57,208 nt of DNA from Phoronis australis (Eukaryota; Animalia; Phoronida), in contig NMRA01000390.1 in assembly GCA_002633005.1 (NCBI GenBank), positions 1 through 57,208 on the forward strand, given 5' to 3'. Shown piece after piece: positions 1 to 47,583 of the stretch. The notes under the pieces were generated by a model that saw only the letters and a list, made by a program, of their open reading frames with translations, searched no databases and had not been told where the DNA came from. Made by a program: the position numbers and the translations under genes. Every line of letters begins with the position of its first letter. Positions within the stretch are counted from its first letter, which is position 1.

Positions 1-954
1 GTGATGGAGCCCTCAGCACAATTTTGAAGCTGGCTAAGGCAAGTAATAGATGTTGGAAGTGCTTGCTGCACATATTAGTGGAAATGGACGAAAAATGTGC
101 CAATGGAGAAAAATGCAATGTTTCTGTAAGTTAATTTAAGTTGTAATAGCACCCTTCTTTTGCTTGTGTTGAGCTGACTGTAGGTATAGCCCAACTGAAT
201 TGAACAGTCTTGTTGAGAGGAATCTGATAAGAACAGTATTTGATGACGCAACTAAGCAAATTTAAAGGATTGCCTCTGCAATCAGATACCTGTTACAACA
301 ACGTTTTAATTCAGTTTGAATTGACCTCAGAAATGTAAAAAGCCAATTGATTCCTAAAATTGTATTAATGAAAAATTAAACATATTAAATTTAATGTGGC
401 AATTTCGGCTCAGAAAACATAAATACCAAGCTAAAGTGAAGGCACCAATATTTTTGAAGGCTTTAGCATGTTTAATTAACTTCATTATCGCAACAAATCA
501 TTGTTAGACAAAACATACTCCCTAGTCAGTCTCTAAAAGTAGTTCATGGGCAGAAGTCATGTTACACATTTGGTGGTTGTTATGAAAAGTTATGATGACT
601 ACCTATCTCTATGCCAATGTATACATGTTGCATAAACATCAACACATTTGAATAAGATATGATTAAGGCCCAAGTTATAAGCAATCACGGTGTGTCAACA
701 AAGTATTTTTGCATGAATGACATGCTTCTAAAAATATTCCTCAGGGTCAGACCCTGGAGTTTAGTGATTCCTACCTGAGCTCACACGAAGCAGGCCGTTG
801 AACCTTGACTTAACGTCTTTGGTCATTTTTCAGACCTCTATCAGATTTCTCCTCTAGTGTGCAGTGGATGTTCTAAGTGTCTTTGGCGACGCCAATATAT
901 CTCGAGTGTTGTAACGATGATTCGGTTAAGTGGCCTCGACGCTATGAAAATCGG

Positions 955-1143
955 CAGGTCGCATTTTGCGACCTGGCCAAAATCCCAGGTCGCATTTTCA
1001 AAATCCAGCTCGCATTCACAAATTCCAGGTCGCAAAAATTTCCCGCCATTTTTACGCGCCTTAATACATTTTTAGTCGTCAGAAAAACATGCAAATTATG
1101 CACTTACCGTAGGCGTTCAATAATAGCAAATTCTAGGTCGCTA
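955..1143. repeat. hAT subterminal repeat cluster, left end (CAGGTCGCA / CAGCTCGCA)
   Basis: About five copies plus the palindrome CAGGTCGCATTTTGCGACCTG; likely transposase-binding sites. Confidence 0.8.
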
Positions 1144-2705
1144 AATAGAGATTTTTTTACAAGCGTTTGGTGCGTTACCGTTCTTCTCGACCGACACTAA
1201 AATGCACGCACGTGCTTGCGAATTTAATCATGATATCACGAGATCGCGCTCAGGCTGTTTGTTACTATTTTTCGCACAAATTTATTAACAATGAAGTCAG
1301 GGCCGCGTGATGCGAATGTAACGAAATCATAGTGGCGGCAGGGGGTGAAAAGATCAGTGGCGACCGGAGACAGCAGATTGAAGTCTTCGAATTTTGAGAC
1401 AACCCGGAGGGGGCGAATAGTAGGAATTTCGTTACTCCTATAGCGGAGTTTGTTTACTCTCCTACCAATTTGTACATACAAAGATAATTAGTTTAAAGGC
1501 TCAGGTAAGCTTTCTCTAACAACATGAGGGGATCGCAGTCCTTTTCCAAACCGATGGAACTTATTTTTGCCGCCCGTGATGACGAGCATGTTTTTTTTTA
1601 CATTCTTGATCCCTGATTTCAAGCTCACCATGAACGTGTATTTGCTTTTTAAAATGGCCGGATTGATGTGCGCAATACTTGCGACGTCCATGCACGTCGC
1701 ATGGTTAGTACCTACGTGGGCCACTACGATTGTTTTCCTTTGTTGAGTTTTTATTAGATTTAACAATGAACGGAAGGTCGCATGGATATCTTACCTTGGG
1801 CACACTTTAGCCGGTTACCGATAGATGCTTTTCTTTATATTTATCTTAACAAATGAACAATGGATGCACCGATTCACCGATCTCTCTTGTAACCTACATT
1901 CCCAAGGGGTGTTATTCGACTGGAACCCGTTCTATTTACCTGCTTACTTCGACGCTTCCATTCCATAGCAAAAATCACCAAAGTTCAGCAAAAATATTTG
2001 TTGTTTAAGCTATTAAGATCCCGCCGTCTTTGTGCGTGCAAAAAAACACTTGATTGCCATACTTCGTCTGACAGCAATTAACTGAACACCTAATTACGAT
2101 GCATAACAGCAACAACACGAACTCTCTTTTATTTCAAAGAGTAGCCAAAACAGAACACTTAATTATTCAAGGGGACTTCGACATGTCTCGAGCGGCCTTA
2201 ACGCTAGGTTCGCATTCTGTTCCCGGCGGCCACGGCAGTCACGTACATGTAAGCTAACATAGGATGTGTACGTGAGACATCATCGGGGGAAAAGATAGGC
2301 AATCGCGTCACGCAGTGATCATCATGAATCCAAAAGTTTCAACAGCGAAATAAGTTATCAAAATCCCTCGACAAACTACATTTCCGGCAAGCTGGGCTGC
2401 CGCGGCCGTAAGGAATATAATGCAAGCGAGATATATCGATGACTAAAACAACGTTTATCTGAACTCGTCAAACTACACATTTTTATCATCAGAAATCGAT
2501 AACGTGGAAGTTGACATATCCCGACAATTGATTTGTATATCAATTTAAGTTTATTTCCAAACATAGTCTTTACATGCAACTCATCACTCGGAGAAGTCGT
2601 CACTTTTTCGCTGTCCCCAAAGCCACGAGTTAAGCAAAGTCGCTAGTATAAACCTAGCTTTAGGGCTACAGATTAAGACTACGCATTAGGGCTACGGTTG
2701 TAGTT

Positions 2706-5700
2706 TTATTCTCCGTCAGTGTCGTCTTCTGCGAATACTGTGAGAACAGCGTCGTCGACCCATTCCGTGTACGTGCACCGTCTTGGCTTCCCGGCTTCTC
2801 TCACCCACTTCTCCACTGCCGGTCGTGGGTCAAAGAGCTCCAACGTCGGACCTTCCAAGGCAATTCTAATCAGATCAGTTGTAGTGGAAGTTGACAGACT
2901 GGACCTTGTTTTGTTCTTGATTCTTCTTTGTGCTGAAAACCCCCGCTCACATTGCGCTGTTGAAACGGGCAACACCAGCATGATCTGGACCAGGTGAAGG
3001 ATATTCTGAAACAAATTACCAAAATTTTGAGTGATCAAATAGAGCATTCGTTCAGTTGTCAGCTTTCTAGGTCCGTTTGCATGACATACCTGATAATCGC
3101 GAGCGTACTGTTCATGGGTGAGTACCACTTGCCACAACTCCAGAAACTGTTGATCCCGGTATTCGGCCCGCACCAGAAACTTCAATCGCCTCCACTCGTT
3201 CAAAACCTCGCTACTGTCACATCCGTTTCTGTAATCAAAAGCAAAATACGCAATGCTCATTTCTTATACGTACCGACATCAACGCAAGGGAAAAAAAAGT
3301 GTTTGGTTGGTCACGACAAATTTTCCAGTATTACTAACGACACCGCTGAGACTGTTGTTTTTATCCACGTTTAACCCGATATAAAACAATCAAGAAATTG
3401 AAATTTGCGATTCACATTGCTTTACATTTGCTCCTTGATAAAGGTACAAGGAACTCTTAATTCATGTGTGATTTTAACGTGAGTCGAACTGTTACCTTAC
3501 TAGCGTGTCCTGGTAATGACGGAGTAAAACCTTGATATCATCGACACCAAAAGCGGAGAGATCTCCGAGTGACTGGGGCCACTTTGTGTGGTCGAAGACT
3601 AAAAATGACCTCAAAACCTGCGCTCTGGGCTGCTTGTCGTCACCAATTAAGTTGCTGAAGCGTCTGTCAAGCTCGTTTACTGTGGTCTCCACCGTTGAGA
3701 TTACTTGTCGACGAACTACTCCTTGCGCTGCTGCGTTCCCTACTGTGTCCACGTCACTTTTAAAGGCAATGCCTTGGAAGTTGAACTGTTAATAAAGTCA
3801 GATACATTATAGTTATTTCGTTAGTCATACATTGTGTACTCTGAGCCTGTCCGACATGATTATAAAAATCATGTGAAAAGGGCATGGCTTACACATTAAA
3901 TCTATATTTAAATCATTAGCTTTCCATGTTTAAAAGCATTACCACGTGATCTTCGTCTATAGTATGCTGCTGAAGACGTTCCAGGGCACCTCCAGGGAGC
4001 GGAGTGGTCTTGAGACTTTCAACGGACATACGGCAAACCCGCAGTGCAGCAACAGCAACAGGCAGCGTGGTGGTGTTTGCTTGTAGTTTCAAGCTCAATT
4101 CAGTTAAGAGTTGAAACACGTCCAGCAAGAAGTGTAAAAACACTAGCAGATCGAAGTTTTCCATATCTTTCACTACCTGAATGTCAATAACAGAGCTTAT
4201 AAACGCACTATTGCGTCTCCTATATTGCGTGCGTTCGAACATTTCAATTGTAAAACTGACTAATAAAAATACATGGCGTGATCTTTTAACACAGTCTATA
4301 ACGAAATTATTTACCATTGACAGATTGCATTTACCTTCCTACATCGCCCCGACACGCTTGCATCCTTGGACGTGGATGAAACATGTCCCATGTGGGCATG
4401 TATCGCTGCATACTGTGAAGGTAATGCTGAATCACCGTACTGGTCAGATTTCAGCAACACTGCTAGAGCGCGGTGCACGTGTGGTGCCCACCGTGTTCCC
4501 TTCACGTTTCCTATTATTAGTGTTTTGGCATCAAGTTGCTCACCGATCTCCTGAAATAGATGAAACTTTGAGGAAGTTAAATTCACAGAACTTGTATGGA
4601 AGATTGTGGGATGTTTAGTAATTTTGATTTTGAAAACGTCACATCATGTTTACCTTTAACTCACGTCTACTTTTGGGGCTGTAATGGTAAGTCTTCCATA
4701 TAGAGTAGAGCATATCGTATGCCAAAGTGACGAAAGGCACATGGCGCTGCGATAAGAGCAAGGACAACTCGAGTCTGAAATAAGAAAAGCACGTCGATCA
4801 TTTAATAACAGTAACGTATAATTGTATAAAGACAAACTTTGTAACATTTATACCTGTTATTTCTTACCTGTGCGCCATGCAGTGAAAGGTGATGAGGTGC
4901 GAGACCTCTAGCTGTAGAAGTGCACCGATACCACCTTTAACACCGATATTAACTGCAGCTCCGTCAGCGGCAAAATGAGTAAGTTTCTGCTTCCACTCTG
5001 GATCAAACTGGAAGGATCGTTCTATGCAGGCCTTTAGTCCTACAAAATGCAATAATAGATACATGTACATAAGTGTGAGTCACGACACTGTAGTTTTTGT
5101 CATTTAGGCAAAGGTTGTTCCAAAGGCAACATTAAGGCGATTCTTAAAATTCTTAAAATCCGTGTTTCATTAATTGTACCTTCAGCGTGGCTGTGTTCTG
5201 TTTCTTCTTGAGATACCAGTTTAGTTACCACAACACCGTCAAGGATGTACCTCGCGTAAACCATCATACACTCTTTTACACTGACGTCAGTGTCGCAGTC
5301 CACTAAAATACCAATGTATTTGCTGTTTCTGATCTCACTCCGTATTTCGTCTGCGAGAACGTCTGCTATGGTCGCTACAATTTCAGCACATCTCTTGTCG
5401 TTGTTGTAAGAAGCTGATATTTGCTCTCCATTCTTTTTTGCCAGCACACATAAAGCGTTCATGTTCGTAAATGGCATTTCCTGCTTTGCTATGCAATAAG
5501 CAATGTTAAACTTGGCGCATAAATCTTTTTTCGTTTGCTCATCCATGTGAGACGCCATCTTCTGAAAACTTTCGGTGATGGGTAACGTTAGTGTTTTCCC
5601 TTTCTTGTCTTTTGATGTCTGGAGGCAAGCTATGTGGGACGCAGACATGTCATGTGCGGCTAATGTCTCTTTCTTAGTGGGTTTACATCCAGCCACCAAC

Positions 5701-7046
5701 GAACTGCGCTTGGCTCTAAGTGGGTGGTTCCTGCATACACCGCAAAACATTAGCCCGGTGTCGTTATCAACTTGCAACCAAGAATACGTGTTGAACCATT
5801 GTTTATTTTTTATCTGCAGAGAAGTTCGTTTTGGTTCCGCGCTTTGGGATCGTTTCGGTTGAACGTTTGTAGATGTTGATGCTTTAGGTTTATGATCCTT
5901 ATCTGTTTTGATTTCTGGAAAAGTAAATGCTGAATCTGCGCTTTGATATGCCTTCGCTTGGACGTATGTGGATTCTGTTGCTTTGCGTTTACGAGTCACG
6001 TCATCTGGATAAACGACCAATGGAACAAAGTGGTTTGGTTGGAACACGGAATTTGGTGCCGAATCCAAACTCCCGTCACGCGTCCACATAATATACAGAG
6101 GCGAGTTACAGGACATTGTCGTCCGTGGTTCCACTCGACCGTGAAGCAATCCGCGCACTAGATCACACTTGTCCATGGCAGGATACACGGAGAACACAGG
6201 TCGCTCCAAGACGGATGACAAAGCCATGATGTGGACAAAACTGCTCCAGTTCTTGTCTGTTAGAGTAAGGCTTGCCTCGCTCTTTATTTTATCCACCGGT
6301 GCCTCCCCTGAAACGTTTTGAGAAAGGGACATGTTTAGGAATGTCAATTCGCTAAAAGAATTTGGGAGACTTGCGGCAGACTGTATTCTTCTGTGGTTTG
6401 CATAGAACTCCGGGTGTTCGTGTAATTCGGCCGCCGTTAGAGAACGCAACGCCTTAGAGAGCTTGTAGTCTTGGCCATAGGCCATAGAAACTGCATTATA
6501 CAAACAGTTACCGTCTCCTAAAGTCTTGACGGGTTTCAGGTTCGCCGGTATGTCACCTGGCAGTAGTGCATAGGACAAGGAGTCGACCTCAAGTTGTCCC
6601 TGAGAACATGGGATGGACAATAATGACTTGACGGACCGGGTTAGTTCTTGGCACGCCTCTGCCACACCGGAGTTACTGTGTATCGCTCCATCTACAATTG
6701 CACAATAAAGTTATGTGATTAAATAATTTTCATAATTTGGAAAAATGGGAAACCAAAATTGTTCCGCCCTTTTCCGTGCGCCACCTAAAAAAAGAAGAAA
6801 AGGCGAAGTTCTCTCGTTGAACGGTCTAAGATGCCTTAAGCAAGCAATGTCAAGTGACTGATTATTCGAACAGTGAACAGCCTGACTTAATGTTCTCGTA
6901 TGATGCTTCAAAAAAACATGGTTAAGTAAAATTTTGCCAATGTTGTTTCTTAGTTAACAGTTGTAAAAAGGAAACTGCAGTTGCTTTACTCAGTATGCTA
7001 TATCATTTATTGTTTACTTACTGAGAGTTTGTATTAACTGGTCCAT
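2706..7046 (-). CDS. OTU (vertnin-like) + zinc finger + hAT (ZNF862-like) transposase, ~1030 aa, 8 coding exons
   Basis: GT-AG exons 7046-7022, 6691-5180, 5039-4868, 4774-4654, 4550-4335, 4176-3943, 3785-3496, 3228-2706 join phase-compatibly (3093 nt) with no internal stop; start acaATGg (MDQLIQTLN...). Motifs: LGDGNCLYNAVS...NHFVPLV (OTU), WLQ..MFCGVC..HDMSASH (Zn finger), ILVDCDTD, FAADGAAVN, HCMAHRLEL, GTRW, LPVSTAQCERGFS (hAT catalytic core and dimerisation domain). Confidence 0.9.
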
Positions 7047-7198
7047 TGTCTGGTTACAGTTAAATGCTCGATCTGAAATATTGGAACGAAAAAAATATGA
7101 CAAACGGTTATAACAGCGAATCTTTCTTAATTTTTAGCAATCGAACTGGCCTTCATTTCTAAATTAGGGTCAGCGCTTGCAAGTAACTAGCAGTGCAT

Positions 7199-7708
7199 TC
7201 CTTCAAAGATTATATGCTTGCCAGTGGCCAGTATCGGTCACCCTGTACCCCTGGGTCAAAACGGATGAACGTCTGAGAAATGATAACAACACCAGTTGAT
7301 TATCGATCTTTAGAACAATGCTGCGTTTCCATTATCTGTTTAGAGCTTAACTTTTTTAAAACTCGAGAAAAGCACGTAGCAGCCAATGTCACGTTTCCTC
7401 GCACTGACTAAGTGACTCATTTGCCTATGAAATTGACGGTGAACTTCTTAACACGTTTCTTATGACAATGACGTGGAAACTGGATCATCAAATAATTCAA
7501 ACAATGCAATTTAAGAATTATTTAATCGCATAGTTACGAAAATTTCGCCGGAAACAAATTAAAATTACAACATCACTTTAAATATTTCCAGACCAACGCC
7601 TTATGCCAAAGCAGTGAAGAAACTGGTTTGATAATATTTGTGAGTCAAAATCAACCTCAGTCACTCCTTCAAAGATTGTATGCTTGCCAGTAGCCAGTAT
7701 CTGTCACC
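7199..7708. repeat. 44-bp direct repeat pair inside the hAT 5' region (7199-7242, 7665-7708)
   Basis: TCCTTCAAAGATT(A/G)TATGCTTGCCAGT(G/A)GCCAGTATC(G/T)GTCACC occurs twice. Confidence 0.8.
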
Positions 7709-7866
7709 AGTGATCCTAATTAGTCTATGTTCCCCTAGTTTGAACAGCAGCCGGCTTGGGAGGGGCTACACGAACGTGCGAACTAAGTTTTTAATACGTT
7801 ATTTGCATGCCATCAATAAAAAGTACACAACAGAGTTACATTCAGAAAAACAACTAAAAACGTTAC

Positions 7867-8075
7867 CTTAAAGATCGTTCTTGAATCTCGCAAGCTAGAA
7901 AGCGAGGCGGAAGTGAAAGTTTGCCACCTTGTTCAGTTCGTTGAAGTAGTTGCAATAGGCAACTGACCACTAATTGGCTTGTTAAAATGGACTGAACAAT
8001 AACCAGCAAGAATCTCTTGGCACTGAAATGATTTAAAGCAAAGATAAGCACTGGATTTTGTTTCGCAATAGCCAT
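7867..8075 (-). other. Probable 5'-UTR exon of the transposase transcript
   Basis: attag| acceptor and AAG|gtaacg donor upstream of the ATG-containing micro-exon (7072-7022); another donor CAG|gtaaga at 8326. Confidence 0.4.
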
Positions 8076-9785
8076 CTAATATTTCGCGTACGCTTGTCAC
8101 ATCAGTATTTCAATTAAAGAGTTACGATTACGATTACGCATTAATCACTGTGCTAGTGGGCTTTCGCTTCCACTTGTCTTTTACAAAAGAAAGAATCGAC
8201 AGATGATCACTACAAGTTGGGGCTACCACTTCAGTTTTTTATAACGTCATTTTTTGTATTATTTTTTTATCGTCCTAAACATCGTGCGCAAGTTATTATT
8301 ACGATTCATTTTTTAGTTGTCTTACCTGACAATCGCGTGCAAGTTTCCTGCTACTCCTCATGTTGTTGCGTCAGATAGTCGAGGTGAACCATCCCTTGAG
8401 AGACCATACGTTCGTTGTCCAGCACGTCATTGTCGGATGTCACATGGCGGCAACCAAAATTTTTAAAGGACTTTGCGGTCGTCGTAAAGTCTCTTTATAA
8501 CGGCATGCGCCTTTTTTTCTTTTTTCGTTGTGTGTCAAAGGGGGACAAGGGGAGGCTTGGAATCTCTGCCAGGCTTCTCCTAAAATCGCCCGTATGCCTG
8601 CGCGCGCAGTACGAGACAACCCATGCAATTGTTCCAAATCAGTTATACTTCATTATAACATTTTTTTGTGTGAAAAGTTATCACCTGGACTTTTATTAAA
8701 AGTTGTATTTGGCAACAGCTTAGTTCAATCGCCGGCTGCACATTCCACTATGATCCAGGCCATCACACTACCACACGCGGCGACTGACCATAAAATGCTT
8801 CTCTAAATGATTTATTGGGATTCTGACGGAAGAGTTATTTTTTCAGTTTAAAAACGACGCATTGTTGCAACATAAAAATATACGCGCTCGTACAACGGAA
8901 AAGAGAATAAATGAAATATTTAACCACCTAACGCGGCCTGTGAACGATTGAAAACCAACATCTTCTGAGAAAATGAGTCAATTCTAGTGTAGTCTCTCGG
9001 TTAGTTGGGGGAGTTGGCGGATGAAAACGCGATTCGTGCATGCATGGTGACTGCAATTACGTAAAATAAGTAAAATTAGACTGCAATCGCGGCAAGGTCA
9101 ACTTGACGGTAGTTTCTGAACAACAAAAAAGCCGTTTAACGAACGACAGAGATGTTGCTTCGCGAACAGCAAAGATGTCGTTGCAGGGTTCAGGAATGTG
9201 GAAGCCCTTCTCTCCGTTGTTGATTGACACTGCCAGTGTTCGTGGGAGACTCTCGCCAAGTAGACTGAAACCCTGATATCCTATGTTAATTTGCCACTCT
9301 CGTCACAGAAAAAAGACTACATGAAATTGTCTTTTATTTTGACAGCTCTTATTTCTAGGAATCAATAAAGACAAAGGCTTGAAATGCAGATTGTATATTT
9401 TTAGCACATGATCACACCATATTAACATAACTGTGCTGAGGTAGGCTTACTTCGGCGTATCCGGAAATTTGCAAACGTAACCGAAAATACTAGCCAATGA
9501 AACGCGTCAATGATCGATTCTGCAATTATCCCATGTTCACGCCACAGGCGCTCGAATTTCCCGATGACTCCTAACCACAGTACTCCAAGTAGTGAGTGAC
9601 GTCAGTCGCGATCGAGGAACAGATAAACTCAAGCGCCTGTGGTTCACGCGACATGTTGACAAGTAATCGAGAGTGATCAAGACGACTGTTCACTGTTAGT
9701 ATTCTTTTGAAATTTGGCGACTGTTGTTCACAAAATAAAGTTTGCAATTACGTTTTTACCAGTTTTGCTGAGAAGTGAAAAAATT

Positions 9786-9889
9786 GAGCTCGCATATGTC
9801 GGAAATCCCAGGTCGCATTTTGCGACTTGAGACGAGTTGGCCAAAATCTCAGCTCGCATTTCCGAATTTCAGGTCGCAAATGCGACCTG
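9786..9889. repeat. hAT subterminal repeat cluster, right end
   Basis: Same CAG(G/C)TCGCA motif repeated, plus palindrome CAGGTCGCAAATGCGACCTG next to the terminal repeat. Confidence 0.8.
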
Positions 9890-11909
9890 CAGCTCGTTAT
9901 GTCGAGCCCTGGTTAAGTGAATCTAATACGGTAGATAATGTAGCTCCTGCACACCTGCCTCCGAGGCAGACACTGACAGACTACTTCTCAGGAGGACACG
10001 TTCCACCTCCACATCAGCTCCACGTACTCTTATAAGGTGCTCAAATGTCTCGCTCTATACCTTGTGCATTTCCCAAGAGTTTCCAAAGTTGTCTCTCACC
10101 GCAATTTGTAGAAATACCACATTCGATGCGACTGGCAGTGCCACATAAATAAATAAATTCGCAAACCCACACTTTAGGTCAGCCATCATTCAACTAACGC
10201 ATTGTAAGCTTTAGTTTGGTATTCAGACGAATGAACAAATTTAGTATAATTTCATATTTTATTGGGAAATTCTAGTGTCCTTAAAATTAATTAAAAACAT
10301 TTAAGCAAACCAATTGCTTTAATTGTTGTATTATTACACGGTATATTAATGCGTAGAAACGGCGCACAACTAGTGACTGGTTTATCATGACAAATACACA
10401 TACGCGGTCTGAAAATAGTGAAATTCAGACACCTATTACCAAGCCTGCCTGAAGGGCTGACAAAGTTTTTATTGTATTAATTTCAAGGGCATGGAGTCTT
10501 CTACATGTCCATGTTATTATTTTTAGTTTTCTCGCGGGGGCAGCTTCACTATAAGGGTACAGCTTACTGCTGGTTTTTCACAAGACGGAAACGTACCTCC
10601 ACGGAAACAGTTCCAGTGTTACCATGGTAACCGATATTGCAGTGTCGGTGCCGTTTTTACTGTTATTGGTCATGAAACTATCATGTGATATCAAAATTGT
10701 TCAGAAACGATTCTGTTTGAAGCAGAAACTGGAGTAGAAATTTTGGTCAAAAATGACTCATTCCACACCAAGAAATTGCCTCATTTTGCACCCCAGAACA
10801 CTTCCCTTGTATCTCCTAAACCACCAAACTTTGTGGTGTCATACTTCACCCATTTTCTCCCATCCCTAATGTGATTTATCAGACTAAACATGGATCTGAA
10901 TGGCTGACCCCCCACCTTGCCGCTTGTTGGCTGTACAGTGGTCGGTGGATCGGTGGACTGACACTTAATCACCCTTTTGATCTCACTTTACCTTAAGATA
11001 ACATCTGTCAAACTCAAGCTAATAACGGACCCTGTTTTGGCTGTAAAACAGTTGATCTGAATAAGTTCATGTTCCCCAAAAACATGGCAAAGATTCCCGG
11101 GGTCTTTTCCACAGAATGCACAGAGTGGTGAGTTAACCATACCTATTTTATATAAAAATTTATTAAGAGCTCTGTAAGTAAGTCTAATTTAGAATCATTT
11201 ATTCAAGACCACAATGTTTAAGTTTGAAAGGACTGTCAACACTTGAAGAATACTAAATAGACCACGCTATAGAGATTCAAAGTTGAAACAATGGATGCAA
11301 AACAAATGTAAGAACGGCTGGTGAGAATGGGAGAAAAATTATCAAGTCTGTTCAGCAAATAATTAAACAAGAAATGCTGGAAATCAACACTGAGTTAGAA
11401 AAGATCAAAAAAGAAAAAAAAGTACTCTAGGAAGAGATTAGTAAACTAAATCAATACTCACGGAGAAACAGCATAAGAACACATGGAGTGAAACAAGACA
11501 AAAAGAATAGTTTGGAAGTGGCAACAGACTTTGTAGAGAAAGCATTGAATATCAAGATTGACCCATCGCTGACTGATAGAGCCCACCGGTCACTACATAT
11601 TGGACGACCTAACTTCAGACAACTACCAAATTCCTAATACGGCTTGTAATGACACAAGAGTTCTATCCAGTTGGTCCAGTGGTGCAACGAAAGTTATCTT
11701 GCGTGATGTCGGAATTACGCACATGGTTGACGACTTTTGAACTTCTATACAATTGAAGAACGAAGACGGACATGAACTTCAAGGGCATTTTACGTTTTGT
11801 TTTGTAGTTACATTGTATAAAAGTGTGAGTGCATGTGTCAATTACTGGTGCAGTGTATACATGAATTGTTATAATTAGTTTTGGAAATATCATAGTGTTT
11901 TACTTCAGC

Positions 11910-12176
11910 TTGTACTATCAAGTAGATAAGGGTTTCTTGTTAGATAATGGTTAAATTAAACTGTATTACCTTAAATTGTACTGTCAAGTAGATAAGGGTT
12001 TCCTGTTAGATAATGGTTAAATTAAACTGTATTACATTAAATAGTACTGTCAAGTAGAGAAGGGTTTCTTGTTAGATAATGGTTAAGTTAAACTGTATTA
12101 CCTTAAATTGTACTATCAAGTAGATAAGGGTTCCTTGTTAGATGATGGTTAAATTAAACTGTATTACCTTAAATTG
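11910..12176 (+). repeat. 4 x 66-bp tandem repeat overlapping the LINE ORF2 start
   Basis: Units start at 11910, 11976, 12042 and 12108; each contains ATGGTTAA(A/G)TTAAACTGTATTAC. Confidence 0.92.
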
Positions 12177-12969
12177 CAGGGGTTGAACAATCAAACAAAG
12201 AATCATCCACTGTTTGACTTCTTAAAAACAAAAAGATTGATGTAGCCTTCTTACAGGAAACCTGTAGTTTGGATGTGTCTTTATCTAAATGGTGTTTAGA
12301 ATGGGATGGTTACATTTTTGCTTCTCATAGTTCCCACATAGTAGGGGAGTTGCTATCCTCTGCTCCAGAGCCATAGATTTTAAATATATTGGCCAAGATC
12401 CAGCTGGTAAATATGTGTATGTGGAGGCCATTGTACACAATATCATAATTATTTTTCTTAAATATTTACTGTCCGAACGAAAATGTTGCTCAATTATCTT
12501 TTCTAGATCAAATAGATTCAGTTTTATCCAAATATGGAACAAGTAAAAATATCTTCTGTGCAGAGGATTTTAACTGTCCCTTGAAAACAAACAGGGTCTG
12601 AGGGGCACAAGCTCCAAGCAAGTTGTTATAGCCCGTACATGTATAAGTAGTTTATCTAAAAAGTATACTGTTTTTGACGTTCGGAGGTATCAACATCCTG
12701 GGAAGAAACAATTTACATGGCATGATAAGTATTTTAATTCCTTAAGTAGAATTGGTTACTGACTTCGTTGTTCCAAGTTTTTAAGGACCACATTAAAAGT
12801 GGTATTCTTAACTATTTTATATATTTTGACCATGCTGCTGTTTAAATCGCAATTACATTAAATGATCTTTGTGTCAGAGGCCCTGTTTTTTGGAAACTTG
12901 ATATCAGCCTTTTAGAAAATGATGTCTATGTATAGAATTTGAAAGAAGTTATTACAAAACTGGTGGAGG

Positions 12970-25100: not shown

Positions 25101-28100
25101 GTGGCGTGACTCATACCCAGATGTGCACTATATGGTTTCACGAAACTTATGTACCAAGTTCATGTGACGAAATCGAGAAGGGTTTTTGATTATCTTAAGA
25201 AAAACTCCAGAGACATGTTAAGTGCCAGAAACTTACCAGGATGTATGGAAATTGTACTATTTGGCTACAAAAACAAAAAATATCTTACACGGGAGGGGAA
25301 ACCCCCCTTACGACCTCCCCTGCTCGGCGCCACGCGCCTAGGATTCTACCTTGGCGGGAATCCTAAAACCCCCTTGCTGAAAACGTAGATCCGCCACTGC
25401 ATTAAACCTTTATTCAGGTTTTATGGTTTTCATGTCCCAAAAAGAAAATAAAAACACAGAGCCTGGATGCTTTCAAGCCCTTTGTTTAGATATGGTCTAA
25501 TAATAAACAGTAATTACTCTCCCTACGTGATCTAGTAAATACAGGTACTCTATTGATGAATAGCCCGCCCTCTAGTGAGACCGGGATGTGGATGGAACCA
25601 GTGGGGCAGTCCACGTGACATTCGAAAAATTCAACAGATTTTTCCAAATTGGTTCTTATCTCGTTTAAAGGTGATGTTTACAGCATCGTCACATTTAATA
25701 AAGAATGCAGATAATACATATCGTTTGTTTGTAATATTATTCAGTACATGATGAATTATTTTAAGTATGCTAGGAGCGGCAGACTATAATACCGGGAGAC
25801 AAGTGTACAGTCTGCAGGATGAGCTGATAAAGGTGCTGATGATACGGAGTGGACATCAACGCTAAGTAACAAATTGTATTGTAGAGGAGGCAAATCTGCG
25901 CCTTTATTTAGAGGGCCAGGCTTCGTTGCTAAGTTACACGAAGTCAAGATGACCAATCACGATTCAGGGTAGATCGGTTTATATCTGTTTCTTAGAAGTT
26001 ACAAATCTAAGCCATTTCGTTTGTATAGTGGAATTGCCTGAGAACAGTGGAAAAAAAACAACTGTGTAGACTTAACCTTTTCCAAAATATGAAAAGTAAA
26101 TTTTCACCAAAAACTGATAGTCAATTGGAAACAAGGGGTTGTGTTCATTATAATGTCTCTGAATGATACTAAAATGATTGAAATTGGGTATACACCTTGT
26201 TGCCACTGCCAGAGGAGAGGTTACTGCTTTTAAAATTATACTTAGGATTTGCCCGTTAGTTCTTGGACCATTCACCTCGTCATAGGACAGACCATACTCT
26301 TCGTCAAAACGGAAGACACGGACGCTTGAAGGATGTATGTTGTCGTTTAAGTGGTGCCCAGTTGCCACAAATCTACAAAAAAAAACAGAGCATGACATTG
26401 ACACTTAGACAATTACGTTCTATGCAAAAAAATCAGTTTAGTTCCACAATTTGTGTTAGGTATAAATTTACACGTTAGGTGACATTCACTAATAACTAAA
26501 TATGTTTTTCTTTTTACCTATCGTACGCACAGTCGGTATTTCCCGAAACAGTTGTGTCTGCATCATCGTCTATTAACCAGTGAAAACCTTCGTCTGTTTT
26601 AAGACCGATGTGTTTCCAGTCAGATGATCCAACGTAGGAGCAGTCGGCATTCAGGTCTCCCAGAATCATAATGTCTTCCATGCGCCATATTTGTTTTGTG
26701 GTGTCATGTACGTCCACGAGGTGGTCGATTTCTGCGACGGCATCTGACGGTTTAACGTGAATGGCGACCAACGCTACATCGGAGACCACTAAAGAACATG
26801 TAACGAGTTGGACAGTGGAATGTGTGGTAAAAAGTAGCAAGGCCAAATTTACGTAATATTTTCTATAACTTTTAGACAAAAAGTGGAGTGCCACTCAATG
26901 ATATTCTCGTTTTCCCAGCCGTGTATACCTCGTTAACAGTCTTTCAGTCAAAAATGCAGATTTGAAAACCAGTGACGCTTGTAATGCACTCTAGTTAATT
27001 TATGGAATGGTTGGAGTTTGATCCCCACTGTAACTGAGTAAAGCAATCAAGATCGTTGTATTAGACAAATTTCCGGCCCTCAAACCTACGTTTGTTCATA
27101 TAGTTTAGGACCGTATTTTTGCCGCGGACAATGCACAGACACAGGTTCGAAAAACAAAAATAAACCCGAGTTGGGTAGGGCTTGAATCAACAAGTCTGTG
27201 TACTTAGACGAATGTATGAAAAGCTATAGATTTTGACTGACTCAGCAAAATATAGATTTTATGAAAGTAGAAGGCGCGCAAAATTGGATTTTGCCTTATA
27301 TCGATTTGACATTTGTAAGATCACGTGAGCGTATCTTTTTAACAAGATTTTGTAAAAAAGAAAGGCACTTTGATAGAAATCCCATGGCATTGACAACATG
27401 ACCAAATTTCATCTAATACAAATGTTCAAGATAAACTCTCAAAAATTTTGTAAACAGTTTTCTTAATTTTTGTTCCATTTTAGTTTGATTTTTCATCCTG
27501 TGTTTGATAGCCCCTCATAGAAAGTGGAGCATTTTGAGAATACCTCCTACCGGAATTTTGGAGAACAATGCATAAATATAGATTATACCACGATATTAGG
27601 CTCAAATGGCAGATACAACCGTGTAATAACCCATAAAGTTGTCTCACTAGTCGAGATAACATTTTGGCGGGAAACCGAGGCCGGATTCGAACCAGAGCCT
27701 CAAGAGTTTCGAGTCGCCGACTTTACCACTACACCACTCAGCAGCTGACGTCATCGAACTTGAAAATACAATACTTAAATGAGCACGCGCAACAATCGCA
27801 TGTTCAGCGAAGGTCATTGCACCGACGTTTATACGCTATGAAAAATAAGACGCATAATTTGCATAAAAACGATATCGCCATGTAAATATAGATTATTACA
27901 TGGCGAAGTCGTTATCCCCCGTTATCTAGAGTCCGAGTGGATTTTGGAGAATTATCGCCCGAGGGGCGTTAGCCCCGAGGGTGATAACTCTCCAAAATCC
28001 TCGAGAGCTCTAGATAAGGGGGATAACGGCTGAGAACATGTAATAATCTATTTATACCACATACTAAACGAGAAACATTGCAATGAATGGATTTACCTTT

Positions 28101-31100
28101 TCTGACTCTCCACGGCTTTGTAACTACTTTCTATGTCAGAGGCCCCGGCGAGGTCGGAGGTCGTGACCTTTTAAGAAAAGCCGAGCTATTTTTGTCAAAT
28201 AGTGCTTTTACTCAAAACCAATTGAAAAATCAAAACAAAATAGAAATAAAATGAATCTAGCAACAATTATAGCTTACTACACAATTTATCACGCTAAGCT
28301 TCGACCGGGAAAATATCGTATGCTAAAGTAGGTTACCACATGTAACTGACTATAATGCTCAAGTCAAAGGATCCCGACGACACGATACCCGCATTCAAAT
28401 TGGATATCGGTGATTTACAAGTGAGAGAACACGAGAGAAAAATTTCACTGAATTAAAATATAGTTTTCATGGAAATTATGCGCCTTATTTTTCATAGTGT
28501 ATAAATGTCGGTGCAATGCCCTTTGCTGTACATGCGATTGTTGAGCGTGCTCATTATATTAAGTATTATATTTTCACGTATGATGACGTCAGCCGCTGAG
28601 TGGGGCAGTGGTGAAGTCGGTGACTCGAAACTTTTGAGGCCCGGGTTCGAATCCGGCCTCGGTTTCCCGCCAAAATGATATCTCACCAGTCAGATAATTT
28701 TATGGGTTATGACACGGTTGTATCTGCCATTCGAGGCTAATATTGTGGTATAATATGTTTTATACCACAATATTAGCGTCAAATGGCAGATACAACCGTG
28801 TAATAACCCATAAAGTTATCTCACTAGTGAGATAACGATTTGGCGGGAAACCGAGGACGGAGTCGAACCCGGGACCCTGGCATTGCTGGTCGCCGATTTT
28901 ACCACTACACCATGTAGCAACGGACGTCATCAAGAGTGAAAATACAATACTTAAATGAGCACGCGCAATAATCGCATGTTCATTAAACCGCATTGTACTG
29001 CATTCATACGCTACAAAAAATAAGACACATAATTTCCATAAAAATGATATCTTAATTCAGTGAAATTTTTCTCTCATGTCCTCTTACTAGTAAATCACCG
29101 ATCTCCAGTTTGAATGCGGGTATCGTGTAGTCACGATCTTTGACTTGAGAATTATATTCAGTTACCAGTGGTAACCTACTTTAGCAGACGATAATTTCCC
29201 GGTCGAAGCTTAGCGTGAAAAAAAAACGTGTTTTAAGCTATAATAGTTGGTAAACCTTAATTTATAAATTCAGTTTATTTCTTTTATATTTAAGTTTTCA
29301 ATTGGTTTTGAGTAAAAGCATTATTTAATAAAAATAGCCCGGCTTTTCTTAAAATGTCACGACCTCCCACCCCGAGCCTCTGACATAGAAAGTAGTTACA
29401 AAGCCGTGGAGAGTCAGTAAAGGTAAATCGATTCATTGCAATGTTTCTCGTTTAGTATGCGGTATAAATAGATTATTACATGTTCTCAACCGTTATCCCC
29501 CTTATCTAGAGCCCTCGTGGATTTTGGAGAAATCTCCAAAATCCACTCGGGCTCTAGAGAACGGGGGATGACGATTTCGCCATGTAATGATCTATATGTA
29601 TCTGACAGTTTCGTGTTAATCCTGTCCGTCATTTCTAAGATGTGATGTTCATAGGTTTGCCAGATTTGGAAATTTTTATGGTCTTTCATGACCTGAACAC
29701 TCAGACGTTGACCTAATTGTAATGTTGGTTGATTTTTGGATGAAACAACAATCACGTGGTTTTACTGCGTCACTACCGGTGTATTCGAAGGATTGGGGGA
29801 GATTGAAGGCAATGCATCTTGACAGAGTTACAATAGCGCAAGTATACTGAAAGGTGTTTGTGCCTCATTCGAAACTAAGCAACAGTTATTTCTTTATTCA
29901 CGGCAGCAAGAATAAAGATTAGTGAAAAAAAAACTAAATGTGCTCACTCTAGACGATAGACGAAATTTTCTTCACCAGTCCGTGTAATCTTACCATTGTA
30001 AGGAAGATGGAATCGTACAACGTAAGGTTCTCTCTCGAACGTATCCTCGCCTTCACTCTCGTCACCATCGTCATATTCATACGTGTCTTGAACTCTGATT
30101 CCAGAACTCGCTCTGAGGAACAATGGTACCGTGTCAAAGATGTGTAAGGGGGTTGCATAGTTATGGTGGACATCCCTGTTATGCTGGACACCACTGTTAT
30201 GGTGGACAATACTGCTGTGGTGGACACCACTGTTATGCTGCACACCACTGTTATGGTGGACACCACTGTTATATGTTGGACACCACTGCTATATGGTAGA
30301 CACCACTGTTATGTGTTGGACACCACTGTTATGGTGGACACCACTGTTATATGTTGGACACCACTGTTATATGGTAGACACCACTGTTATGTGTTGGACA
30401 CCACTGTTATGTGTTGGACACCACTGTTGTGGTGGACACCACTGTTATGGTGGACACCACTGTCAGTTATATGGTGGACACCACTGCTATGGTAGACATC
30501 ACTACCGATATACATATAGGCTAGAGGCCCACTTGATGTTTCGGGAACGAATAGCGAGTGTAGAATTGCACGGATGAGTTAAACATGCTAAATAAAACAA
30601 GAAAATTAGGAGACTCTTGCAATACATTCTTGTCTGGAGGCACCATCTCAGAGCCAAATTACAAGACAAAGTAATGTAGTGAAGTTAAACCTAGGTCCAA
30701 AATAGTATCGTCCTAAACAGGTAGTGCTGCTGTTAGGTAGAATTTTTTTCCACGAGAAGCGACATCTGCCGGAATATGGTCTTTCCTTATTACCTCCTCC
30801 GCGAGTAGTCCATATTTCAGCCCATATAGCCGTCTCACGACAAGAATTTTCCAAAATACGTTAATTTAGGAGTCTCAAGTCAAATATCAAAACGACAATC
30901 AGATATGGCATATTTCGAACTTAACGAAATAGGCACCCGTTTGCTAAAAGCGTACCAAACCCGGTTTTGCCCTATTAACAGACATTAAAAACAACCTTCC
31001 TATCCAGTTCTCTGAAACAAAGCAATGAACTATAACCCTCGACAACCCTCAAACGTTTTGAGGAAAATTTGAAAACTCCTCTCAAAGTCTGCTAAACGGG

Positions 31101-37322: not shown

Positions 37323-38049
37323 CTGAAAATGTAACATCAATGATTAACCCCAGCCCTCAGCTGATTGGACTTGCGAGGACGTAACTTAACAGAGTCGTAT
37401 CTGCTCCTTGTTAGAGTTATTCAAAAACTCCAAACTTTGTTTTGCCTAAATGTATGACCAACTAGACCAGTTAAATCTTGCATACAACGTGTGTCAACAC
37501 TCAAATATATTTTGGAACAGGCTTTGAAAATCATTGCAAAGTTTGTAAAAGGAGCAAGCATGACTTGGGCTATGGACAAGTCACTGAACGATTGTCAAGA
37601 CCGTCCACCTCGAGCAGCAGCATTTCTTTGACACAGCAAGGGGGTCAGGAAAACCATTAAGTTTCAATATAGCATTGTTGGAGGTGCGTGAGCTATAAGG
37701 AGAGATGCTAGTTATGCTATACTACGCCGGACAAAACAAATTTTATGCGTGACCAACAAAACAGAGTTTCGAAGAGTTTTCTGTTGCAATGTTTTTACAA
37801 CTATGTACTTTGTCAATAGATGTTATGCTAAGAGGCACAATTACAAACAACGACATGATTAAAAAAGGAAAAAGATAACATTTTGATAAAACGTCTTTTA
37901 AAGGAGCGTTGGACCCGTTACGGTCTCTTAAAAACAATTTTTCATTTAAATTTTATAAAGTTATAAAATAAGTCCCAAATTATTTAATCAACTTTGAAGT
38001 GATGGTCTTCGAAATAGTTGATAATTCGTTATTGCTTGCTGATAACATT

Positions 38050-38695
38050 TCAGGTCACCCCGGCCGTGTTGTGAACAAGCAACCAACAGTCGGGTCACCC
38101 CGTGGTATGAAATAACAATCACTAATGTCAGGTCACTCCGTTATATGAACAAACAAATAACTGCCAGGTAACCCCGTGGCATGAGCAAAAAACCAACGGA
38201 CAGGTCACCTCGTAATATGAACAAACAAACAATGTCAGGTCACCCCGTTTGGTATGAACAAACAACCAACAGTAAGGTCACCCCGTGTTATGAAGAAACA
38301 ACCAACTGTCAGGTCACCTCGTGTTATGAACTAACAACCGTCAGGTAACCCCGAGGTATAAACAAACTAAGACCTGTAAGGTCAGCCCGTGGTGTAAACA
38401 AACAACTGTCAGGTCACCCCGTGTTATGAACAAACGAACTGTCAGGTTACCCCGTGTTATGAAATAACAACCAACTGTAAGGTCACCCCGTGGAATGAAT
38501 AAACAACCAACTGTCAGGTCAGTATGTGGTATGAACAAACAACCAACTGCCAGGTAACCCCGTGGCATGAGCAAAAAACCAACTGTCAGGTCACCCCATG
38601 GTATAAACAAATATCCAACTGTAAGGACACATCGTGGTATAAACAAACATCCAACTGTAAGGACACCTCGTGGGATAAACAAACAAACAACTATC
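38050..38695. repeat. ~36-bp minisatellite
   Basis: CAACTGTCAGGTCACCCCGTGGTATGAACAAACAAC-like unit, about 18 diverged copies. Confidence 0.92.
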
Positions 38696-40296
38696 AGTCC
38701 TTCCCAAGCCCAGACATCCCTTCTAAACTGAGAAAAAACAAGATACGATCGATTTTATAACCTTTAATGACCTAATGAAAATCTTATTTTTGACAGAAAG
38801 CAAGGCTTATTGCCATTTTGAAAAGCAGCGTCTGACGGAGTGAAACATCAAATGGCAGGACATTACATGACATGTCGGACAAGCAAATAAGGGTGACTTG
38901 GAAGTTGATAAAACGACTCAACAGAGGAAATGAAGAATTTTACATACACAGACTGTAGATAAAATTCAAATCTGATAATATTCAATTTGAAAATATTCAA
39001 CATATTTATAAAAGTAAAGAAATAAAAGTGAAAATAAAACTTACATGGTTCAAAACCAAGATCCACGAAACTATTGAAACAAAAATAAAAATAATACAGT
39101 TAATAAAATTATCAAAATAAGAATCGTGCAAACAAAAATTAACGGTTTTACTTTCAAAGCAAAAACGGAGTGCATTTGGGCCTAAGTTGCCTCTAGTGCA
39201 TGGAATTAAAATTAGTTTCCATCCACAACTATCCACAAAATGTCTCTTGACAAATTAAGATAATTACTAACGAATATATTTCAATTCAATATTGATTGGG
39301 ATTCGTTCACTTTAAACACTCCTAAAGGGATAAGCAAACGCTTGTCATTTTACCTTTACTAAAATACAGATCGTTGGCTATTTTGGAGAACCATTTTGTC
39401 GTGTTACCCACAGCTCTCACGGCTCTTACTCACTATCCACGCAAAACTAATGAGACTGACGGAAATAGTTACAGCCCAGCTAAATGTCCGAATCTGGAGC
39501 CAGTTGCACTGCGTACGTGCCCAAACAGAAGCATTATGTTGTATTCATAACCTTCCTGGAGAATTGGTGGTCGTTTTGTTGTTACATTTTATAACGCACG
39601 GACAATCGTAGGGTGTAGTCGTAAGCCGTGTCGTATATGTTAGCCTAACGATGCTTTACTAAGACTACATGTAGTTGTCACAGAATGGGAGACGCTGAAG
39701 TAGATTGTAATTTTTCAAAATTGAAGTTGACACTGGATTTGACATACAGTAGGTCAAAAACTAAAGACAAAGGGGAAATTATACAGACGATCATGTTATT
39801 AGAGTGACCACTATGTACACTATGGCAGGGCTAGCCCTCGTTGCCATTTTGTTTGACGATATTTGTGCCGAATCACCAATCTTAATCTTATAAGTAACGC
39901 TGTTAAATAAATGTCTTTCCCAAATAACAATTAAAGGTACCATCATAAACGATTTTCATTTAGCAACAATTAATTTTGGTCCAGGAATTACTGACAGCGG
40001 GTCTAGCCACTTTCTGAGCTGTAGACACACGTAACGGCATAAAGCACAATTAATTACATCTAATGTCGTGCTAGGCTCGCAAATATGAGCTACAGGCTCA
40101 TCTGAACTCAAATAGTATTTGTGTTTATATTCGATACGAAAATAGACCGGCAGGTGTCTTAGAATATTTCCGTTTTATCCAAGAAAAAAAATTTTAAGAG
40201 TGTAATACAAATGGAATTAATGGATGCAATAAGATATTGTGAATAACATATTAGGACATGACTAACAACTCTTGAAAGGTCTACACCTCTACTTAC

Positions 40297-44820: not shown

Positions 44821-45870
44821 GAATTCGCATATGTGTGGTGAGGGCGTTACGAAATTGGAACAGTTACCAATTGATTAAGACACAAAAATAAAACAATAAG
44901 AAATTCAGCCCGAAAAACGCAGTGAGCATTACGTCAGGGCTTTAGGCAATAAACACACAATGATAAATATAGATTATTACATGGCGAAGTCGTTATCCCC
45001 CATTATCTAGAGCCCGAGTGGATTTTGGAAAATTATCGCCCGAGCTCAATTAAATTTGGCGCTGCACACGCGAATTTACTCGACAAGGAGACTGTTCACC
45101 AACCGTGAAATACGGCGTCCTACCGTTGAATACGGCCTCTACCGTGGTATACGGATTAACTCTACTTTCCCGTATTTCATAGTTGATAAATATACATTAT
45201 TACATGGCGAATTCGTTTTCCCCCGTTATCTAGAGCCCGAGGGGATTTTGGAGAATTATCGCCCGAGGGGCGTTAGCCCCGAGGGTGATAATTCTACAAA
45301 ATCCATGAGGGCTCTAGATAAGGGTGGTAACGACTGAGAACATGTAATAATCTATTTATACCATATACTGAACGAGAAACATTGCAATGAATCGATCTAC
45401 CTTTCTCGACTCGCCTCGGCTTTGTAACTACTTTCTATGTCAGAGGCCGCGGTCGGAGGTCGTGACCTTTTTAGAAAAGCCGAGAAATTTTTGTAAAATA
45501 ACGCTTTCACTCAAAACCAATTGAAAAACCAAACAAAATGGAAATAAAGTGAATCTATAAATTAAGGTTTAGCAACTGTTATAGCTTACTACACATTTTA
45601 TCACGCTAAGCTTCGACCGGGAATAAATCGTCTGCTAAAGTAGGTTACCACTAGTAACTGACTATACTGCTCAAGTCAAAGGATCCCGACCACACGACAC
45701 CTGCATTCAAATTGGAGATCGGTAATTTACAAGTGAGAGAACACGAGAGAAAAATTTCACTGAATAAAAATATCATTTTTATGGAAATTATGCGTCTTAT
45801 TTTTCATAGCGTATAATTGTCGGTGCAATGCCCTTTGCTGAACATGCGATTGTTGCGCGTGCTCATTTAA

Positions 45871-47547
45871 AGTCCTTCTTGCAAACTGCCCATGTGGTTC
45901 CAGTATCCGAAAATACTTACTACATAAATTCTTATTTTCGACACCCTTTCTTTATATTCTTTTCGCCTTTCTTGCCAAAAGCGATTTTTAACAGTATTTG
46001 ACCCTTCTCTCTGAGCGTATGATTACCGGTTGTCATCGGTTATTTCCGTACCCACATTTCCGGCTCATCAGTTCAGGAACTTGTTCTGAACGCCGCCATT
46101 TTTTCCTTGTAACTGAATGTGCTATGGCTTGCTCGAAAATTCTTCATTATTTTGTTTTATTAGTAATATATCGTGATTCGTTTGCATATGTAGTGTATTT
46201 ATAGTTTGTAGTTAGTGGTCGTTGATTTTTTTGGAATGTTACGCGTACTTAGTATGTTAAAATAGCATTGGTGTTTAGTTCCTTACGTAGGCCGGTCGAA
46301 CCTAGGAACCAATATGGGTCGAACCAATTTTTTTTCGGTTTTATTTTTTTCCTCGTTTTGAAAAAGTACTTTGCTATCATCGGAAAGGTAGTACATTCTA
46401 CTCAGTAAAAATCGAAAAAGTATCAAAATCGGGGCAAGCACTGTAAAGTTATTGCAAGTTTTGTGGCGAAATTTGGGTCACTTTGTTTGGATCGCGTCGG
46501 CCATATTGGAGGACAGCGGGATAAGTTACGAGTTTAAAACTTTGTGTAAATTGTTTTCGCCAACAAATTACGGTGAAATTTAGTTAGACATATCTTTACT
46601 TACTATTCTGCACGATTTAACAGTGTTCACCAAATTTCAGCCTCGCAGTTGTTACTCATTAAGTGATAAATGTGCTCACAATTCCCGTTGGACTTCGTCT
46701 CATTTCTGGCGGCACCGACAACATGGCGACTTTTGCTGAACTGAAAGGCATGTTCAATCGGCTACTTTGTAATTTGTGAAGATTTAACGTTGATACATTT
46801 TGACAAACGTTGCTACAAAAAAGAAACTTTGTTCAATTTTCGTGTTTTTTGTGTTTGTGGCCAGCGACCAGTTAGGCCTAAGGGTAGTCTTGGCGCAAAG
46901 CTGTCTAGGCCTACTAACAAGCTGTATTTTGACTATAGTCTTCACTGGTAGCTGGTGACTGAGGCTAACTAAGGTCTGCCGCGGCAGTGTGACACAGGAC
47001 TAACCAGCCCGTAATTTCATGCAAGTGTCTGAAACTACCCTTGAATATATGCAGCATTTATCATTTGACCGTTTTACTTCGACAAAACAGCTTGCAACCG
47101 CACGCATTTACCGTTCGCCAGTGTCTGGTCTCGATCCGCACCGGGTCCGATAGGCTGCGGTCCCGAGTCTGGCAAAATAATTTCTTTCAAAATTTATTCG
47201 CCACATTTCTTCAGCAAATTCCATAAAATTGTCCGTAGTTTGACTTTATCAAAATTAAGGCGCGCTGTCGATTTTTTATCCCCGTTTTCTGGCTGGTAAC
47301 AGTACATGCACTGCTCCAGTCGCACTGACGGCGTTTTCTCGGCCTGGGTTCCTGAATGAATTGTACTTCCGGGTTCGCGGCAAGTTCAAAATGGCGGTGT
47401 TTCTTCGGGTGCGAATCGTGAGTGGCGCATTCATTTAAACTTTTTTCGAGTACGAATTGTGTATTAGTTATGGGGTAGGTACTTCTTGGATCCTTATAAC
47501 ATCTTCTAACCATGTAATAAGGGTTAACAACGCGTGAGAGAAGGACT
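45871..47547. mobile_element. Non-autonomous Kolobok-type element
   Basis: TTAA|AGTCCTTCT...AGAAGGACT|TTAA, interrupting an otherwise colinear repeat. Confidence 0.85.
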
Positions 47548-47583
47548 TTAATTATTCTGTTTTCACGTTCGATGACGTCAGCC

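Follow-up and report, generated by a model that had tools for sequence, protein, structure and literature searches.

A hAT transposon of Phoronis australis encodes a transposase that begins with a predicted OTU deubiquitinase domain of a subfamily carried by several kinds of transposon

The sequence analysed (the window) was contig NMRA01000390.1 of the Phoronis australis assembly GCA_002633005.1, forward strand, positions 1 to 57,208. A hAT transposon of 8,979 bp spans 933-9911 and carries, on the minus strand, a gene whose predicted product is ordered as OTU domain, linker, C17orf113-type zinc finger and hAT transposase. The gene was modelled with nine exons (Table 1) separated by eight GT-AG introns, giving 3,009 nt and 1,002 aa with no internal stops. 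The original prediction, made from the letters of the window, had proposed an unbroken fusion of ~1030 aa between the element termini; the stop-free model bears out the fusion but not the length. Exon 2 lies within a minus-strand open frame of 536 codons (5100-6710). As predicted, this one long exon encodes the OTU motifs GDGNCLY (6518-6498), WSSFVH (6248-6231), LYIMW (6098-6084) and FQPNHFVP (6044-6021), together with the zinc finger and the first catalytic Asp of the transposase (LVDCDTD, 5306-5286).

Six frames were scanned with Pfam and two gave matches, all above cut-off. OTU (PF02338; E=1.3e-6, 29.3 bits against a cut-off of 23.3) and zf-C17orf113 (PF25431; E=4.8e-8) were found in frame 5100-6710, and Dimer_Tnp_hAT (PF05699; E=1.2e-6) in the last open frame (2706-3263). 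The zinc finger is of the C17orf113 type, not BED. The DDE triad (D473, D538, E923), C566xxH569 and R630W631 were intact in an alignment with five relatives, and the triad is interrupted by an insertion domain, as expected of the hAT superfamily (PMC4763223 gives the split DDE, CxxH and conserved RW as criteria). The model aligned colinearly from end to end with proteins of the stony corals Porites evermanni (CAH3019449.1, here P0041; 36.7% identity over 1,019 columns) and P. harrisoni (KAM7430194.1, P0043; 36.5% over 1,019 columns). The internal splice junctions are thereby supported, and the fusion is present in independent gene models. Identity to P0041 was 41% in the OTU, 24% in the linker and 48% in the catalytic core. 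Position and phase of the intron after exon 2 were the same in two related loci (L003 and L004).

Table 1. Features of the hAT element in window coordinates (TIR, terminal inverted repeat; PIP, PCNA-interacting protein).
Feature	Positions	Strand	Remark
Target-site duplication, left copy GTTAAGTG	925..932	no strand	
Element 3' end: TIR without terminal CAG, beginning GCCTCGAC, with subterminal (G/C)TCGCA repeats at ~20-nt spacing	933..1036	-	
Exon 9: hAT dimerisation region, catalytic Glu923 (2948-2946), stop	2706..3005	-	
Exon 8 (predicted)	3090..3228	-	
Exon 7 (predicted): insertion domain	3496..3785	-	
Exon 6 (predicted): insertion domain	3943..4176	-	
Exon 5 (predicted): RW motif R630-W631	4335..4550	-	
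Exon 4 (predicted)	4654..4774	-	
Exon 3 (predicted): second catalytic Asp538, C566xxH569	4868..5039	-	
Exon 2: N-terminal helices, OTU, linker, zinc finger, DNA-binding region, first Asp473 (5300-5298)	5180..6691	-	
C17orf113-type zinc finger (C325, C328, H355, H361)	5604..5807	-	
Low-complexity linker with basic stretch RKRK, without PIP-box-like motif	5808..6011	-	
OTU domain, residues 43-235: Asp45 (6584-6582), Cys71 (6506-6504), His229 (6032-6030)	6012..6590	-	
Exon 1 (predicted first coding exon): ATG 7046, donor 7021	7022..7046	-	candidate
Element 5' end: intact TIR CAGGGCTCGAC (9911-9901) with subterminal (G/C)TCGCA repeats	9780..9911	-	
Target-site duplication, right copy GTTAAGTG	9912..9919	no strand	empty-site joints

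Fold comparison agreed with the prediction of an OTU domain. An AlphaFold model of the OTU (27-row alignment) reached a pLDDT of 89.9 and a pTM of 0.88, and all PDB matches listed by Foldseek were OTU-domain entries. VIA-align gave Z 13.8 against OTUD3 (rmsd 3.1, 137 aligned), 13.5 against VCPIP1 (rmsd 2.9, 159 aligned), 12.8 against A20 (rmsd 3.0, 160 aligned), 12.7 against TRABID (rmsd 3.3, 168 aligned), 12.8 against DUBA and 12.0 against Cezanne. In the subclass comparison the A20 class aligned with higher identity (22-24%) and over a longer stretch (156-172 residues) than OTUD3, with Z scores tied with that of OTUD3 (13.8). The structural alignment begins with model residue 1 (residue 43 of the protein), which corresponds to A20 residue 68 and Cezanne residues 153-155; provided that the first three positions are ungapped, Asp45 takes the position of A20 Asp70 by aligned range alone, and Cezanne Glu157 is presumably its equivalent there. 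The A20 triad is Asp70-Cys103-His256 (PMC11311569). In the modelled fold Asp45 is likely to be an A20-type third triad residue acting with Cys71 and His229.

Conservation was scored on 58 non-redundant OTU rows, left of 87 after removal of near-duplicates. Cys and His, whose motifs had been predicted to be intact, were both kept in 55 of the 58, and the other three had a gap at one of the sites; the Asp45 position held Asp in 47 of the 48 rows that were not gapped there. Among the best 150 representatives of the OTU search, many of them fragments, the rows with a letter had Cys in 98/98, His in 128/130 and Asp in 64/64. The ratio of non-synonymous to synonymous rates (dN/dS) in related loci was 0.07-0.22 for the OTU (six of seven locus pairs, dS being saturated in the other); where computable, the linker gave 0.36-0.40 and the hAT part 0.08-0.12. 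The locus pairs share loci. By this comparison of related copies the OTU is under purifying selection, and motifs and model together make it likely that the OTU of the window hAT works as a deubiquitinase.

The predicted spliced transposase of this element begins with a tethered, predicted deubiquitinase. The OTU would deubiquitinate its own transposase as well as chromatin or repair proteins where the transposase cuts. It would act in cis at the transpososome with ubiquitin as its substrate, and the element might gain a longer transposase life and less host interference at the break. Judged from sequence and model, a deubiquitinase of this kind, directed at the transposase and at chromatin or repair proteins, is the most likely reading, with somewhat better than an even chance of being right. 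Transposon-borne VTD domains are active deubiquitinases that were proposed to shield transposition proteins from the proteasome (PMC9741609), and a repair-related role was proposed for the OTU/Ulp1 of Ginger1 (PMC2836005).

Several points weigh against a tethered deubiquitinase in this copy. In exon 2 no in-frame Met precedes Met78, which lies downstream of Cys71, so an OTU with its catalytic Cys requires an upstream coding exon, and activity hinges on the candidate first exon. RNA was taken from three raw runs, about 18-19% of each, and neither the 7022/6691 junction nor any other splice junction was covered by a read in them; reads from the coding region of this copy were likewise absent from this sample, and run X3 in a second read mapping, and X4, gave nothing. 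Reads mapped at 80% stringency (19 from X1 and 15 from X2, on 5174-6510) were all first mates on one strand. Most of them matched at 80-95%, and they contained frameshifts and the unspliced end of an intron, as from a diverged copy. They probably represent a decayed second copy bearing OTU and hAT sequence and read antisense, and all appear to come from this single diverged copy; the differences to it (40 of 42 listed places) changed 22 codons non-synonymously and 14 synonymously, some of them close to indels, and were uninformative. Further, OTU folds can also cleave ubiquitin-like proteins or polyproteins. Finally, the OTUs of transposons are stated to be untested in PMC9741609.

The original prediction had taken the micro-exon 7046-7022 as the first exon. 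Its phase and start context (ACAATGG) fit, and its donor is the sole GTAAGT in 6700-9900, but it is one of 38 possible phase-1 ATG/GT combinations, its donor ranked 69 of 192 on a splice matrix built from the seven internal donors, and a homolog profile gave 46.4 bits with it against 46.0, so that neither measure singled it out. It is a plausible candidate for the first coding exon and probably makes up the coding portion of a 51-nt exon (7072-7022) with its acceptor at 7073. If instead it is not spliced in, translation could start at Met78 and the OTU of this copy would be dead or not made, the element being a silent relic of an otherwise active family. The junction for which no read was found and the damage to one TIR agree with a relic, but the entire 3,009-nt frame is free of stops, the donor and the start context are strong, and with the micro-exon Cys falls at residue 71, inside the range of 68-89 in 13 homologs; a relic is accordingly judged improbable. 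Two further observations concern the 5' non-coding region of the element: strong donors at 7866 and 8325 hint at first exons without coding sequence, and a 47-nt direct repeat (91%) occurs at 7196-7242 and 7662-7708, 466 nt apart.

The ends of the element were examined for TIRs and an 8-bp target-site duplication, which the original prediction had expected at its borders; a duplication of this length is a trait of the hAT superfamily. GTTAAGTG was found on both sides, and short inverted termini, which are a hAT criterion, are present at both ends, but the TIR CAGGGCTCGAC is whole only at 9911 and the 933 end, which starts GCCTCGAC, is damaged. In other copies, as seen in RNA reads, CAGGG precedes position 935, whereas here the 933 end lacks the terminal CAG. 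The subterminal motif (G/C)TCGCA, counted on either strand, occurs five times in 958-1029 and six times in 9789-9881, with 41 copies in the whole window. RNA reads of the same species connect the flanks and omit 8,987 nt, at the joints 923->9911 (17, 2 and 8 reads in X1, X2 and X3) and 927->9915 (28, 21 and 31 reads). The omitted length equals the element plus one duplication (8,979 + 8), and these are therefore empty-site reads, which demonstrate the past insertion of the element; the flank is itself a repeat, and the reads may derive from paralogous empty sites. That host repeat (780-924 and 9920-10100) has good RNA read coverage on either strand.

Numerous RNA reads stop at 935 and 9911 and continue into unrelated DNA, which points to a family with many ends, probably for the most part short non-autonomous copies. 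Because one TIR lacks the terminal CAG, the present copy may be unable to mobilise itself; its gene could serve other copies in trans. When 39 related loci, mostly short contigs, were scanned, none of the hAT loci among them showed a TIR paired with a target-site duplication, and one end of the family type was detected (in L022). An Rfam scan of 1-12000 gave no matches.

The distribution of the OTU was followed in a search that returned 1,344 representatives at E<=0.001 (298 at 1e-10). The downstream partner was determined in 82 loci, which were the best 80 of at least 164 metagenome relatives, near-duplicates included, and two viral loci. It matched the window hAT group in 17 loci, DUF4371-type hATs, a second group, in five, a large SAP-domain element, putatively Zator-like by its motifs, in 20, Mutator in three and piggyBac in two; 35 loci, many of them short, had no match. 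Single proteins joined the OTU to the second hAT group (P0001, P0081 and the L058 open reading frame, ORF), to piggyBac (P0004), to Mutator (P0005, P0038, L062), to Helitron (P0037, P0324) and to DUF7869 (P0196). As far as these sequences tell, the OTU is a cassette common to hAT, Mutator, piggyBac, Helitron, Zator-like and other elements, and is not peculiar to hAT, which corrects the original prediction on this point. The fusion of the window type does recur in other genomes: Porites proteins P0041, P0043 and P0099 have the same full-length OTU and hAT architecture, and the named hosts are stony corals (Porites, Acropora).

A passenger OTU, captured from a host and without a role in transposition, would fit the fact that most described hAT transposases, such as Ac and Hermes, function without one. 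Its purifying selection, which resembles that on the transposase, the near-invariant triad and the in-frame fusion to several unrelated transposases make this the least probable of the alternatives.

Exchange between elements was approached through identity and phylogeny. The window OTU shares 30-43% identity with OTUs of the second hAT group, and the transposases share about 21-26% over long alignments, which fits module exchange or slower evolution of the OTU. The backbone of the OTU tree was unresolved, and the window row fell outside every supported clade. Approximately unbiased (AU) tests were run without 13 partner-less rows and a further 3-4 that were long or gappy. They rejected a single hAT clade with L060 included (p=0.0006) but not without it (p=0.57); the OTU of L060 lies about 1.9 kb from its transposase match, so that two separate captures of the OTU by hATs are not claimed.

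Other carriers of the OTU were noted in the same material. L078:21-4673 (also L061, L064 and L077) is an AT-rich element with inverted ends of ~190 bp (97% and 89% arms), in which a member of the OTU subfamily stands in front of a transposase-like ORF set without a Pfam match; the OTUs of these four loci form a supported clade of their own. P0218 (991 aa) has a C-terminal OTU with CxxH- and RW-like motifs seen by eye N-terminally, and in alignment and profile comparison with hAT the OTU alone matched. P0254, P0318, P0280 and P0260 are long proteins with a C-terminal OTU behind a probably transposase-like region. P0002, P0003, P0039, P0154 and 20 loci, in cnidarian-type data, encode proteins of 1.5-2 k aa with OTU, DDE-like and SAP domains. 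P0185 (1,221 aa), the top match of the representative search, has three OTU domains in tandem ahead of an LRAT-like domain, and may be a domesticated host gene. Viral contigs gave only two weak (25%) matches; in L081:4962-9527, from a giant-virus contig, a 1,522-codon ORF opens with such a distant OTU (25% identity).

The linker was scanned over 110 aa after the OTU with the PIP-box consensus, and expectations were taken from shuffles. A loose motif (hydrophobic-x-x-aromatic-aromatic) was found in 10/12 rows of the window hAT group (0.31 expected) and the strict Q-x-x-h-x-x-FF form in 4/12 (0.02 expected), 20-46 residues past the OTU; strict examples include P0041, P0043 and P0084, loose ones P0099, P0112 and P0071. 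AlphaFold on full-length P0041 gave a low-confidence model (pLDDT 42.6) that was not used. Such a motif might dock the protein on the PCNA clamp, where the OTU would deubiquitinate PCNA or its partners and steer gap repair or replication coupling. A PIP box in the pogo transposase (PMC4103810) is a precedent. The scan of the window protein itself found no such motif, however, and over the same span it is rare in other carriers (1/5 in the second hAT group, 1/11 in Zator-like elements, 0/6 in Mutator); the rows are related, so that 10/12 does not amount to ten independent events, and a PIP box may be of use to the transposase instead of the OTU. A PCNA-directed OTU is judged rather unlikely.

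The long, weakly conserved linker would also suit an OTU that cuts itself off the transposase, or one that cleaves some other non-ubiquitin substrate in the manner of certain viral proteases with an OTU fold, and viral OTUs were among the fold matches. Identity was higher to cellular deubiquitinases of the A20 class than to viral OTUs (12-18%), however, a [LR]xGG site was found in 0/41 rows within the first 110 aa past the OTU, and in other elements the OTU is also C-terminal. Such self-processing is considered very unlikely.

The original prediction had likened the OTU to that of vertebrate vertnin (VRTN, C14orf115). The comparison was made on a published alignment (supplement 9 of PMC3024977), with gap-free blocks picked by eye: window residues 42-105 had 26/64 and residues 157-179 had 11/23 identities to pig VRTN, so that the resulting 41-48% is an upper-end estimate. 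In that alignment VRTN keeps the Asp of the triad, Cys is replaced by Leu (Arg in opossum and zebra finch) and His by Tyr (Lys in zebrafish, Asn in Tetraodon); its catalytic motifs are degenerate, as the original prediction had it. An OTU-like domain without catalytic residues, followed by five helix-turn-helix (HTH) domains and of unknown role, was newly detected in VRTN by PMC10318531, whose supplement table 1 groups it with OTU and A20/Cezanne. VRTN is described in PMC3024977 as a vertebral-number gene assigned to no known family, with HTH of the IS3/IS911 type. The automatic UniRef name of one relative, P0014, is 'Vertnin', and an Atlas search with P0014 placed a vertnin cluster at 0.82 (rank 13), which serves as a lead only. 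VRTN itself was absent from the best 150 of the 1,344 representative matches and from the other homolog listings, and the VRTN-type HTH motif was found in 0/82 loci and 0/150 representatives.

On these comparisons the VRTN domain is likely a dead member of the same OTU subfamily. A direction from transposon to host would follow from the distribution of the family, not from the tree. The C-terminus of VRTN consists of HTH repeats, not a hAT transposase, and so does not point to hAT in particular as the donor; the homology of the OTU-like domains was borne out, and the donor need not be a hAT element. The window protein, with zinc finger and hAT after its OTU and with Cys and His intact, shows neither VRTN-type HTH repeats nor catalytic loss.

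Comparison with known systems places the element among hATs with a C17orf113-type finger (PF25431), which share with it short TIRs, an 8-bp duplication, subterminal repeats, DDE, CxxH, RW and the dimerisation region; canonical hATs as described in PMC3285750 and PMC4763223 have no N-terminal protease. Coral proteins CAH3019449.1, KAM7430194.1 and CAH3017283.1 (Porites) and XP_074612257.1 (Acropora palmata) have the same order of OTU, linker and zinc finger; the three from Porites extend to the hAT C-terminus like the window protein. These records bear automatic names only. Ginger1 (Bao, Kapitonov, Jurka 2010, PMC2836005) also combines a cut-and-paste transposase with an OTU and a link to ubiquitin and DNA repair but, going by that description, differs in an integrase-type transposase and a C-terminal OTU. 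Helitrons and Helentrons with OTU or VTD domains (PMC9741609, PMC11417382) likewise carry deubiquitinase folds, of which the VTDs are active; unlike the hAT they are rolling-circle elements, and VTD is a different class of deubiquitinase, whereas the Helitron-like P0037 and P0324 carry the OTU subfamily of the window. A20/TNFAIP3, Cezanne, TRABID and VCPIP1 are alike in fold (Z 12-13.5), in GDGNCL-type and HF-type motifs and in an acidic residue before the Cys, but are host genes without a transposase.

OTU cargo as such is already published, for Ginger1 (PMC2836005) and, as the original prediction had noted, for Helitrons (PMC9741609, PMC11417382). A literature search that covered neither Repbase, Dfam nor subscription papers found no paper on a hAT-OTU fusion, and none, subscription papers again lying outside it, on a transposon origin of the OTU of VRTN. 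The main text of PMC10318531 has no word starting with 'transpos', and 'OTU' is absent from the main text of PMC6446971, whose supplements may list Mutator OTUs.

Elsewhere in the window an interspersed, partly inverted repeat family unrelated to the hAT-OTU element lies at 27572-29602, 44960-45870, 47547-47719 and 56833-57134 (up to 690 nt, 80-89% identical). Minisatellite-like tandem arrays occur at 11882-12211 (66-nt unit), 30160-30503 and 38047-38697.

A wider scheme may be put forward tentatively, as clearly less likely than not: one vertnin-type deubiquitinase cassette with an A20-like triad would have passed among transposons, would in the window hAT family have been paired with a PCNA-docking motif and edit clamp ubiquitin at excision and insertion sites, and would have left VRTN as a domesticated dead descendant. 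By the findings themselves hAT, which ranks among the largest transposon superfamilies of eukaryotes and has yielded gene-transfer tools, joins the carriers of a ubiquitin-editing enzyme as predicted here, and the PIP-like motif of the linker offers a definite candidate for the substrate. The intact OTUs, predicted to fold well, are candidates for the assay of transposon OTUs that PMC9741609 called untested. VRTN gains a large family of relatives that are catalytically intact by sequence and mostly carried on transposons, so that a transposon origin and a role as a ubiquitin-binding pseudo-enzyme become testable.

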